This document shows positions 50,701 to 54,460 of a stretch of 64,000 bases of DNA, one piece after another (position 1 is the stretch's first letter; each line of letters opens with the position of its first letter). Below the pieces are notes generated by a model. It was not told the DNA's origin, did not search any database, and was given only the letters and a program-made list of their open reading frames with translations. This DNA comes from Escherichia coli. GTDB taxonomy: Bacteria > Pseudomonadota > Gammaproteobacteria > Enterobacterales > Enterobacteriaceae. The translations under genes were made by a program, and so were the position numbers. Location of the stretch: NCBI RefSeq assembly GCF_003790525.1, contig NZ_CP033635.1; one strand, given 5' to 3'.

Positions 50701-51110
50701 ATAAGATCTTCCAGAACCGGTACCATAAAGCATTCTGTTTTCCCGGATCCCGTACCGCTGCTCACTAACAAGGATTTTTTGTCTTCCAGAATCGTTCGCC
50801 ACGCCGTAAGTTGATGACGAAATGGCACCGGCGCTTTGCTCAATGCATCAACCAGCGGGCTGGAAATTAGCTTGTCCCGCAAATCCTCCATTGTTTCATC
50901 CGCAGGCATCCAGCCGAACGTGCTTTCGAATACCGGGTCTGCAAGCAGTGACCCCTCCTGACCGGGAGGCTGGAAATATTGTGATTCCAGATAATGAGTC
51001 AACGACTTGCTCCGCAATGCCAACTGACTTACCACCGACCTCACCGCGCGCTGATGAAGCTGATTTAGAAGTGGCGCATAATGCAGTTGCTGAACGTCCA
51101 TCAATGACAT
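44787..51110 (-). CDS. Giant DEAD/DEAH-box helicase with DUF1998-like zinc ribbon (2107 aa); DruE-like, paralogue of the 2113-aa protein
   Basis: Motif I LVSSGTGSGKTECFM, DEAH box VLDEAHSY, motif VI LQRAGRAGRRGE; Cys-rich module IYDNNAGGAGY...DCSCDKFCHHCLLSYDSQ...; 10-nt overlap with the upstream gene. Confidence 0.8.
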   Translation of the reverse strand: MSLMDVQQLHYAPLLNQLHQRAVRSVVSQLALRSKSLTHYLESQYFQPPGQEGSLLADPVFESTFGWMPADETMEDLRDKLISSPLVDALSKAPVPFRHQLTAWRTILEDKKSLLVSSGTGSGKTECFMVPVLEDLIRQQKSTRQSLTGTQAIFLYPLNALINSQQERLREWTRGFKGKIRFALYNGETRHTKYEVQEDQLKVPEQALSREAIYEAPPSIMVTNTTMLEYMLIRRKDAPIIEKSQGMLKYIVLDEAHSYIGSQAAELALLLRRVMQAFNVGPGTDKPVQIIATSATIGEDSPEGNKELAKFVADLAGVTERDVKVVRGYRQIPRVSESLIRHEYPTSLTSLKSLSPQDLYQQLCHYRVAQQLRQALTHPGRQAVRLSELLNVARRTWPDINHRELLQLLDLMARSREGELAFTPLRMHGFIRTLAGLWACSNKQCSHKAHELNQSDWPFGQVWFEQRQYCDCGAPVFEVLRCSGCGSAYLSAKEEVRGDGTNWLVAQPAAAEVDEFALDVDVYSEDEDNDELDNNSQFDRLIAIDGEKYIISLEETTAGKIDSEAQKHYEINLLRPESRGEGRNNSFACVCCGDTQRKNNPLFRPLRLGAPFFLNEIIPTLLEFSPLPQTREEQLGPFNGRRLLTFTDSRQGTARISARLQQDADKATLRALCYQELANINEPSAKLSPAHCALLESFITQFSILPLKNSIDALKKAMVANEELSPADIQALKIIEPMVSSLSPDHAEAMQILQANSGNQQKKTMSWQTLSEQLVGSVDLADRMRGSFKELSGLDLTKQQFADFCLYSEFGRRPKNAWTLESLGLVAIHYPFIDKVTTCPQDWKTLLPDPDKQLAEWRNLLKITLDFFIRENSAVFYENEQYPRWMGARFPVKMLQGPDKKNKGQKRDQLWPQIRDRHYNRVIKLLIAVFPAIQPEQAHWKSLVNHLMIEVWDAIRPCLRQFESGYQLDIKQQAEFYSPKQVWRCPYTRRALDVTLLGYSPYLPGSKEIAPEKAVLIEMPELPVRHWRLSGGGEIAREERLEWLESNALIQHAREEGLWSTRSDRLALKDSWYRLEEHSAQRTPEQNQFNEKQFKSGKVNVLNCSTTMEMGVDIGGMSLVAMNNVPPAPANYLQRAGRAGRRGESASAAITLCKNTAHGMEVFKDPLWAFNTTASAPRVRFGSSSIVQRHVNALVLGLFLRAEVPDATKLSCKWFFEGDESQCLRFLHWLNNQADQLADKLKRLTQGTVLMSLTATQLLTRTQAMMQQVDIRWRSQLAILLENIEALKADNSAWEETPAGKAIAYQLRDYRGAYLFSKLISEAFLPGHGFPVGVVNFNYLTADELEKRRAIKATQADPNEGGESFSRRIEKLPSRDLPTALREYAPGADVVLGGKVYRSSGIMLGKVLASGQELSGDHHIPWFWHCRKCGAGATSTTRPVECSHCKADIQQLDVKRYLQPVGFATDIRYQAHNDVSMPAQLPWKDPRVLVPSSVWVSLPDAGLGRYRFSHSGELFHFSEGEFGHGYAICLSCGRAESQNQPQRTPENLKNPERENTHYLLRGGSNDRQGSNKLCHGHVHKDLWLGYSSRTDMVELQLNDDNGLLIRDEVAARSLAVALREGLAHKLGIENTELGVTTQQARDINGYTGYSIFIYDNNAGGAGYAVQLIDHWADVFNYARKLLDCSCDKFCHHCLLSYDSQHYVNRLDRHHALTLLTNVRLQRLNLAPEYQYFGDGSRVETNPLSLRIAQCLNSEIYDSCSLVLAGPQEQWDFAQWPLFKELLQFASSGGHVELLVATPLANLTDSSRHQLSALAAMPGGRLQVKSIATAQLMQGKGRWLAQVTREGQSQQWAADDSATVAPGELWGQSASSPVVTLKGTSGKTFLGQILSAEDLLPALPTGAVRINLCEQLDGPLEGFGSRFWSLVTQQHAGWKQAFTRHKEITHVEYSDRYLNSPFTARLLGEILTELVEQGMAERASLTVCVKKLDYNSRQHDALYNAWLNEEDRQQVVTTLLEEGYLGPAWLGAISWLTGDNQSTEHGRELTVTFSDGSQHYVLLDMGLSYWRCIEDTFFDFALRVPQQVERLANTRARAVAPGNDLRSYIIAG

Positions 51111-54100: not shown

Positions 54101-54460
54101 TCTTATCTTTCTTTTCCAGTAGCGAATGCCATCATTAACCAGCTTCTGTCGATGAACATACGGAACTTTCCAGTCAATAGAATCTAAAATTGTGTCCCAT
54201 TTAGGGTGTCCGACCGTATGAGTCCGGCGGATAAACTCTGCGGCATATATGCTAAATAGAACATCGCTATAGGAAATGAATATCGTTCTTGGATAACTAC
54301 GGGGGGCATATGTACGCAGTAGTTCTGCCAAACTTTCGTACTCTGTATCAGTACAACGGTAAGCATATAACGCCCGTCCATCAGCTCCGGATAATGAACG
54401 GCGACTAAAAAACATGTTAAGCCATTGCAAAAGTGGGTTAACTGGAGTTTTCACAAGCAA
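51101..54460 (-). CDS. Large protein of unknown function (up to 1119 aa; true start uncertain); DruH-like partner of the helicase
   Basis: Long intact ORF with no recognisable catalytic motif; AT-rich codon usage; translationally coupled to the downstream helicase. Confidence 0.6.
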   Translation of the reverse strand: MLVKTPVNPLLQWLNMFFSRRSLSGADGRALYAYRCTDTEYESLAELLRTYAPRSYPRTIFISYSDVLFSIYAAEFIRRTHTVGHPKWDTILDSIDWKVPYVHRQKLVNDGIRYWKRKIRNLGQASGYLHTLACEGGLPIRMIENESGYLITYFRRIYQALRGQASQYPAAKIAQELGDTIPVTMQNELVYEIAGEFCETLCRLLSEHPPQSSDPVSALRKLSPDWHLQLPLVLPEANAAEIVRRLLSQSSEIRSASSLQVERIWVDVDDSWYCDARFRFPATMRTEQLTSLFECNIQPEQTRLIISGKWRNGGARLAMLSRYEQQDWRVELLPIAMQKLSGADAMAEISLSLHEGPILLGHTIPKGGYELTEELPWVFEAMNESESQLKLVGMGSVSSRLNALFISLPKNSHLDISGEGEFDIPRLLKNSERSLTKISGVFSVVLHDGAVCTIRTQQLYDSAIEYYIKSTEVELVKSDYPVHRAWPKIGWKKDLQYGIVPEKELFWRSIRSGNNAWYSVASKMPKGQIEVRRIVNDEVLFSGKVVVLPADFDINIIPESAQQGIIMLSGITDTRIDKYSNNEKVTLKSDYSQNECAIYYNSSEMLENTVDLRVSWKDGSNLKLLLPKPVSGGRFVTHDGSVHFDGVASIAHLHGIDAELLTISCAGRGYLNIELLDENPVAEKFRYLHADLPLLSGCNDKLKQISLYENYNLLNAMLACAWSSNSTLCVDFYSDRFGKDKATLSIKRYDGSFIEHDQGLLVDIKNSVVFPANRIDELVVDAISLKDPGLHISLLKKDEFAYDLSALNVQDSPWLIVGKLDGTARIAPVIKWGLPVLQTNDLLLNALCEADSEQRKKYFNELIFEIDNNPLQNYCCLLTEYIKKYKMNNGLSLLDLDLFRGISSNYRVVVQLLISSCLSGDSDTIYDIQEELPFSWGWIPVSIWKDVFQKCWAYLEKQINDKTLALHILQPFIAFMNHRAHIDRRLAPIANMLLTYSKLLPAGCNVLPTVSREQFNEAKQMLLRNPDSFGRISIFPKELWSSAITPELKSVFNKLWIKNKYHSRLEKRFNLMLVAALLTQKDNNLIHQLSALFEFHYQQAPQQLGVIYQYYFEQAGVCH

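Follow-up and report, generated by a model that had tools for sequence, protein, structure and literature searches.

The largest gene without a recognisable domain in a 64,000-nucleotide (nt) stretch of Escherichia coli DNA (NCBI RefSeq assembly GCF_003790525.1, contig NZ_CP033635.1; this whole stretch is called the window) almost certainly encodes DruH, the subtype-specific partner of DruE in type III(-A) Druantia, within a Zorya II/Druantia III/ARMADA II defence island. The gene, druH, is already known and the locus is not novel. An earlier note on this DNA had described its 1119-amino acid (aa) product as an orphan; the protein belongs to a large, named and experimentally studied family. 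The biochemistry of DruH is disputed among five 2026 papers, in which it is a single-stranded DNA (ssDNA) binder, a 3'-5' exonuclease, a sensor/nickase or a scaffold. Family-wide conservation argues for the N-terminal domain, rather than the published ATP/ssDNA pocket, as the core functional site of the family. In the composite model favoured here, to which we give an even chance, DruH would be the upstream DNA-engaging subunit that licenses DruE.

Identification of druH and extent of the family

The gene and the helicase gene downstream of it are as follows.

51101..54460, minus strand: druH coding sequence, 1119 codons from TTG at 54460; alternative start GTG at 54454; stop codon TGA at 51103..51101.
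44787..51101, minus strand: druE, giant YprA/MrfA-like DExH helicase(-nuclease), assigned from PADLOC DruE3, PDB 9TU7 and Pfam.

DruH was matched by the PADLOC DruH3 model PDLC00041 with 2541 bits over profile positions 1-1117 of 1117, and by NCBIfam NF038336.1 (YjiT_fam, STY4851/ECs_5259 family protein) with 980.1 bits against a cut-off of 150 (residues 13-1107, profile positions 1-1089 of 1090). Chain A of PDB entry 9TUD, named "DruH" (1119 residues, cryo-electron microscopy (cryo-EM)), is near-identical to the window protein (2526 bits). The residues named by Hu et al. (10.64898/2026.05.12.722862) and Wu et al. (PMC13192584) were identical in 30 of 30 cases at the same numbering, counted from the TTG. 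The nucleotide sequence of druH matches with 100% identity the gene annotated in E. coli SMS-3-5, where RefSeq annotates the same 3360 nt, and that of many other strains.

DruE was identified using PADLOC (DruE3, 2180 bits) and PDB 9TU7 with related entries (4862 bits), and its C-terminal half carries the Pfam domains Helicase_C and MZB (formerly DUF1998). As in type III Druantia, druH lies directly upstream of druE, co-oriented and coupled to it. The coupling to a helicase gene described in the earlier note was borne out, the druH stop codon overlapping the start of the 2104- or 2107-aa helicase gene by 1 or 10 nt (junction sequence AGGAGTATGTCATTGATG). Two in-frame druE ATG codons stand three codons apart, at 51110 (2107 aa) and 51101 (2104 aa), with AGGAG 1 nt upstream of the first and 10 nt upstream of the second; the A of ATG 51101 is also the A of the druH stop codon. 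This second ATG is the start taken by RefSeq and by Hu et al., and the PDB 9TU7 chain is the longer form.

The gene occurs in 520 of 5426 complete E. coli genomes, on a plasmid in 7 of them and on the chromosome in 513. When 1.84 billion cluster representatives (clusters defined at 50% identity) were searched, at least 1342 DruH-like clusters were found at E ≤ 1e-3, and 999 at E ≤ 1e-10. The order of druH followed by a giant DEAD/DEAH helicase gene was also found for distant homologues on Marinobacter and Methylocystis plasmids. The module also moves outside the chromosomal island: a few plasmids of E. coli and Klebsiella pneumoniae, conjugative or mobilisable, bear full-length druH at 93-98% protein identity.

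That the open reading frame (ORF) is an orphan, possibly untranslated or with a badly misplaced start, has next to no probability. The gene is AT-rich with a non-ATG annotated start, the PHROGs search with DruH gave no match, and Pfam-A gave no significant match (E ≤ 0.001) for DruH, for the N-terminal domain profile or for 64 homologues searched individually; the earlier note was right that no catalytic motif can be recognised in this way. PDB searches with the N-terminal and full-length family profiles returned only 9TUD, plus noise from designed helical repeats and PPR proteins. Against an orphan stand the profile hidden Markov model matches, the PDB structure, the 1342 homologue clusters, the conserved synteny, the ratio of nonsynonymous to synonymous substitution rates (dN/dS) of 0.14, the published copy number and deletion phenotypes, and homology that extends upstream of Met16. 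The gene did not fall into a housekeeping family; it is a defence gene, already assigned and studied.

Reading frame, start codon and translation

The frame is uninterrupted over its 1119 codons, the length given in the earlier note, and at 40% GC content the probability of this by chance is about 1e-32 by our own arithmetic. It is AT-rich relative to the coupled helicase gene, again as first described: the GC content is 39.9% for druH (32.8% at third codon positions), 48.7% for the helicase gene (46.1%) and 47.0% for the window. The larger genes of the window encode helicases or a methyltransferase, so the description of druH as the largest without an identifiable motif stands.

The start codon had been called ambiguous on the ground that the 5' end holds several Met codons in frame. 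Codons 1-141 include a single ATG, codon 16; the other candidate starts are TTG1, GTG3, TTG11 and TTG44. Met16 was rejected as the start, since homology reaches upstream of it, the alignment of homologues beginning at DruH residues 6-8, and no Shine-Dalgarno sequence precedes it. The ambiguity that remains is small, between two codons, TTG 54460 and GTG 54454. The Shine-Dalgarno-like sequence AAGGAAGG at 54465..54472 lies ahead of both. A start at TTG 54460, giving 1119 codons, is the choice of RefSeq and of Hu et al. The chain of PDB 9TUD starts with G-A-M-E at the position of codon 3 and reads ..M-E-T-P-V.. at positions 3-6; we infer that this N-terminus reflects the NcoI/TEV pETM11 construct of Himpich et al. 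(10.64898/2026.05.13.724758), in which the protein begins at the GTG codon. Within the species the 5' region hardly varies (identity of at least 99% in 512 of 514 E. coli records), so such a comparison cannot decide between TTG and GTG.

The need for both druH and druE, the binding of ssDNA with competition by ATP, the essential N-terminal patch and a DruE-DruH complex on forked DNA were shown in published experiments on alleles about 98% identical to the window druH, or on the Pseudomonas aeruginosa protein (PaDruH). By mass spectrometry, cells expressing DruH from its native promoter have about 190 copies each (10.64898/2026.05.12.722862), so the gene is translated, which disposes of the reservation that the ORF might not be. 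Deletion of druH in EDL933, a native enterohaemorrhagic E. coli (EHEC) host, abolishes resistance to Bas26 (10.1101/2025.09.22.677730), and both druH and druE are needed for defence by the plasmid-borne systems of ATCC 8739/NCTC12923. Compared with the allele of O157:H7, the window druH differs at 80 nt and 24 residues (97.9% aa identity, dN/dS 0.14). A pseudogene or untranslated ORF was ruled out by this dN/dS and by the published proteomics.

Domain architecture and conservation

The full-length AlphaFold2 model was built with 64 sequences and had a predicted local distance difference test score (pLDDT) of 88.6. It has the architecture described for DruH of type III Druantia, with the following regions.

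53696..54460, minus strand: N-terminal all-alpha domain (aa 1-255), where conservation in the family is highest.
51968..53683, minus strand: central beta-rich region (aa 260-831), an immunoglobulin (Ig)/fibronectin type III (Fn3)-like array, from the model and cryo-EM descriptions.
51104..51937, minus strand: C-terminal alpha-helical domain (aa 842-1119), from the model.

The top AFDB50 matches to the model were full-length family members with TM-scores of 0.6-0.89. For the N-terminal all-alpha domain no known fold was found.

Conservation was read from 130 aligned full-length homologues, whose identity is about 22%. It peaks at aa 20-250, which coincides with the loss-of-function class of Wu et al. 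Invariant residues are G137, P139, W226 and P231, and residues conserved at 85% or more are F69, E75, R78, R79, W88, W115, L129, T131 and G136. The conserved polar set comprises D27, R29, R35, E40, E75, R117, E135 and D/E236, and Y34 is a further conserved residue of the domain. The residues of the published pocket (Y670, N672, H689, Y733, R1031, H1062, R1064 and K1067) are at most 15% conserved across the family and are fully kept only in the closest cluster (48% identity), in an alignment that is gappy in its C-terminal part. All are present in the window DruH. The ATP/ssDNA pocket is thus clade-specific and is not the core of the family.

Published activities and the proposed mechanism

The five 2026 papers assign different functions to DruH. 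Hu et al. (10.64898/2026.05.12.722862) describe an ssDNA binder with a nucleobase pocket formed by Ig5 and the C-terminal domain, for which ATP competes, and no nuclease. Loeff et al. (10.64898/2026.05.13.724313) describe PaDruH as a Mg-dependent 3'-5' ssDNA exonuclease with a putative active site in the N-terminal helical domain (R22, K28, E64 and E220), and as a 1:1 PaDruH:DruE complex on forked DNA in which DruH's C-terminal domain contacts the DruE stalk. Wu et al. (PMC13192584) describe an infection sensor with Ig-like and "baseplate J-like" modules and dimer-dependent nicking, and report an essential N-terminal patch at aa 63-137 in E. coli DruH. Himpich et al. (10.64898/2026.05.13.724758) describe a monomer with no catalytic folds, associated indirectly with DruE in cells until infection, when the association is lost. 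Li and He (PMC13316683) report that Mycobacterium smegmatis needs the DruH-DruE interaction and that a minor tail protein activates the system.

In the composite model, DruH would recognise exposed ssDNA, or 3' tails, in intermediates of phage replication or recombination and would probably trim their 3' ends through the conserved N-terminal all-alpha domain. Its C-terminal helical domain would then dock on the DruE stalk, and docking would relieve the auto-inhibition of the DruE dimer, making it an active helicase(-nuclease) that translocates 3'-5' and would unwind or degrade phage DNA without killing the cell. In the enterobacterial clade, the Ig5/C-terminal pocket would bind ATP in competition with ssDNA and so gate DruH. 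The order of these events and the catalytic role of the N-terminal domain are what we infer; that the domain carries out genuine 3'-5' exonuclease catalysis we consider possible, with the balance tipped slightly against it.

Several observations weigh against the composite model. Two groups found no nuclease activity of E. coli DruH under any condition (10.64898/2026.05.12.722862; 10.64898/2026.05.13.724758), and the same two groups (Hu and Himpich) found that the E. coli proteins DruE and DruH formed no stable complex in vitro, even when forked DNA was supplied. The activities that were reported are unlike each other, one being a 3'-5' ssDNA exonuclease (10.64898/2026.05.13.724313) and the other a dimer-dependent nickase of supercoiled double-stranded DNA (PMC13192584); because they differ in kind, contaminating nucleases are a possible source. 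Profile and fold comparison found no domain or motif of the known nuclease superfamilies (PD-(D/E)XK, HNH, PLD, DEDD/DnaQ, metallo-beta-lactamase and others). Escape mutations and triggers in phage structural proteins point to the sensing of protein rather than DNA. Finally, the pocket cannot be the family's core mechanism because it is not conserved beyond the closest clade.

That same conservation pattern bears on the model of Hu et al., in which DruH is a non-catalytic, ATP-gated ssDNA clamp: DruE unwinds DNA from 3' overhangs and, as ATP drops locally, DruH holds the displaced ssDNA for other nucleases. Cryo-EM of apo, ssDNA-bound and ATP-bound DruH shows one common pocket, each of the substitutions R1031A, H1062A and R1064A cuts defence by about 90%, Hu et al. 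detected neither nuclease nor ATPase activity, and every pocket residue is present in the window allele. However, homologues at 20-35% identity have lost the pocket residues yet still pair with DruE, N672A and Y733A had minor effects (Hu et al.), and K1067A spares standalone defence (Wu et al.). The model also gives no role to the N-terminal domain, the most conserved and mutation-sensitive surface, and we think it rather unlikely.

The evidence for protein sensing is the basis of the model of Wu et al., to which that of Li and He is related: the Ig-like array, with a claimed baseplate-J-like scaffold, binds late phage structural proteins, DruH dimerises, and the dimer makes nicks at which DruE enters. 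Escape mutations map to baseplate wedge, tail fibre and internal virion proteins; a weak co-immunoprecipitation of DruH with Bas37_0273 is lost in an escape variant; supercoiled plasmid is nicked by dimeric DruH; and expression of Gp25 switches on the mycobacterial system (PMC13316683). Positively selected sites were reported in the Ig-like domains, and the differences from O157:H7 DruH lie mostly outside the N-terminal domain, but the pairwise dN/dS of the Ig region is 0.13. In E. coli the candidate trigger, when expressed, was insufficient, and DruH was monomeric in the hands of three other groups. For the reasons given below, the "J-like" similarity is itself in doubt. Taken as a whole we judge this model unlikely.

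The scaffold model of Himpich et al. holds that non-catalytic DruH sits in a resting complex of DruE with SerA and RcdB and is released on infection. Tagged DruE co-purifies DruH, SerA and RcdB from uninfected cells, all depleted after infection, and DruH had no effect on DruE helicase activity in vitro. The host partners SerA and RcdB were not essential in the hands of the same authors, PaDruantia functions in a heterologous E. coli host, and neither the conserved charged residues of the N-terminal domain nor the structures of the ssDNA/ATP pocket are explained. We regard this model as improbable, and the composite model, in which DruH would engage DNA and license DruE, remains the one we favour.

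The "baseplate J-like" similarity

The AFDB50 entries A0A5C6UW01 (1118 aa) and A0A930US09 (1127 aa), which carry the "J-like" name, align end to end with DruH and are placed among STY4851/ECs_5259 family proteins; they are therefore DruH homologues. Pfam Baseplate_J matched 0 of 64 family members. Searches for genuine similarity to phage baseplate J were negative in Pfam, PHROGs and PDB profile searches, the family profile finding only 9TUD. A Foldseek search of BFVD returned no baseplate J or gp6 protein, only generic tandem-Ig structures with a best E-value of 1.4e-5 and TM-scores near 0.1; no direct superposition on T4 gp6 was made. The similarity looks like an annotation artefact. Wu et al. 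chose matches by that name, so the published claim may be circular. We regard the J-like argument for protein sensing as unsupported; the escape-mutant and co-immunoprecipitation data still stand. DruH and the proteins so named both have beta-rich modules, but the AFDB50 entries are DruH-family members and not phage proteins.

Allelic variation in druH and druE

The composition of druH is a mosaic, with 43-48% GC at gene nt 1-1200 and 33-40% in the remainder. The synonymous divergence (dS) from O157:H7 rises from 0.023 in the N-terminal domain to 0.067 in the Ig region and 0.144 in the C-terminal domain. The mosaic suggests recombination between alleles within the gene.

In druE, 37 of the 114 nt differences from O157:H7 fall in gene nt 1801-2400; window positions 48880-49100 correspond to codons ~670-742. 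Ten of the 19 aa differences lie in aa 678-742, where the local dS is 0.31 compared with 0.05-0.09 elsewhere, which suggests a recombination patch or a diversifying region. This region is the "protruding domain" of DruE (K683-N753), reported as its dimerisation element by Hu et al. (10.64898/2026.05.12.722862). Some E. coli records in RefSeq name DruE "motility-regulating DEAH-box RNA helicase". This name is probably misleading, because deletion of druE left fliC and motility unchanged (Himpich et al., 10.64898/2026.05.13.724758).

Genomic neighbourhood

Apart from its last 700 bases, the window follows SMS-3-5 (NC_010498.1, ~4903429-4967428, reverse strand) colinearly, and 45.4 kb contained a single mismatch. 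Genes across 58200-62914 were taken from the RefSeq annotation of the identical SMS-3-5 sequence. The neighbours of druH and druE are as follows.

54461..54671: druH-zorA2 intergenic region, AT-rich and divergent, presumed to hold both promoters.
54672..58145, plus strand: zorA2-zorB2-zorE (type II Zorya), from the RefSeq annotation of the identical SMS-3-5 sequence.
28328..44563, minus strand: armA-armB-armC-armD (ARMADA II, DISARM-related), from ORFs and RefSeq, directly downstream of druE.
Within 58200-62914: Kelch/NanM pseudogene fragment.
58972..59613, minus strand: HNH endonuclease gene.
Ending at 60622, plus strand: phosphorothioated-DNA-binding restriction endonuclease gene.
Within 58200-62914: gene for a 332-aa hypothetical protein.
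61859..62914, as ORF: gene for a JetD-domain protein.

The Zorya II/Druantia III/ARMADA II arrangement is the described O-island 172 defence island of EHEC, and synergy between type II Zorya and Druantia III has been reported. The repeats found between druH and zorA were all short and weak. A consensus scan for promoters and terminators gave counts not clearly above the shuffled expectation; promoter-like sites were seen by consensus only and were not used. The ARMADA II products are a SNF2 helicase, a 1640-aa methyltransferase, a 2113-aa DExH helicase and a UvrD-like helicase, and armA has a DrmD-like match in PADLOC and NCBIfam. Within armB (36780-41702, minus strand), a block at gene nt ~2800-4400 (~37300-38900) has 33-36% GC compared with 54-60% in the rest of the gene; it looks like a swapped module, perhaps a target-recognition region.

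Past Zorya II, at 58200-62914, the island goes on with more defence-type genes. At 63300-64000 the window departs from SMS-3-5 with a copy of IS1414, an IS256-like element that is 99.7-100% identical to annotated copies. It interrupts the 4437-nt "hypothetical" gene lying ahead of the JetD-domain gene in a Wadjet-like cluster. The Wadjet-like defence system next door is probably inactivated in this strain.

Much of the resistance of EHEC and related E. coli to phages is due to the Zorya II/Druantia III/ARMADA II island, a point of relevance to phage therapy. The residual interest lies in the disputed biochemistry of the whole DruH family and not in the locus of the window, and its value is modest. 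What the present analysis contributes is a conservation map that places family function in the N-terminal domain, and the observation that the baseplate-J argument seems to be based on mislabelled DruH homologues.

Comparison with known systems

The window DruH resembles the published E. coli DruH in its length of 1119 aa and in the order of and overlap with druE, and the locus resembles the published E. coli Druantia III in lying in the same island, with zorABE upstream and armABCD downstream. The 24 substitutions relative to O157:H7 DruH lie mostly in the Ig-like and C-terminal regions, and none is at a residue named in the papers.

PaDruH belongs to a distant clade, and homologues at 20-35% identity are without the E. 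coli ATP/ssDNA pocket residues. PaDruH was reported to act as an exonuclease and to form a stable complex with DruE on forked DNA, whereas two groups saw neither for E. coli DruH. Residues R22, K28 and E64 of PaDruH, mutation of which abolishes defence (10.64898/2026.05.13.724313), fit the alignment columns of E. coli R29, R35 and E75; these columns hold R22, R/K28 and E61-69 in many homologues, the P. aeruginosa sequence itself lying outside the comparison.

In Bacillus subtilis, MrfA-MrfB pairs a YprA-family helicase with a 3'-5' exonuclease, and DruE is YprA/MrfA-like (PDB 6ZNP match, MZB). Unlike MrfB, DruH bears no sequence or fold resemblance to known exonucleases, has about 1100 aa with an Ig-like array, and acts in phage defence and not in DNA repair. 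MrfA-MrfB and druHE are alike in that a helicase is encoded beside a partner acting on the 3' end or the ssDNA product.

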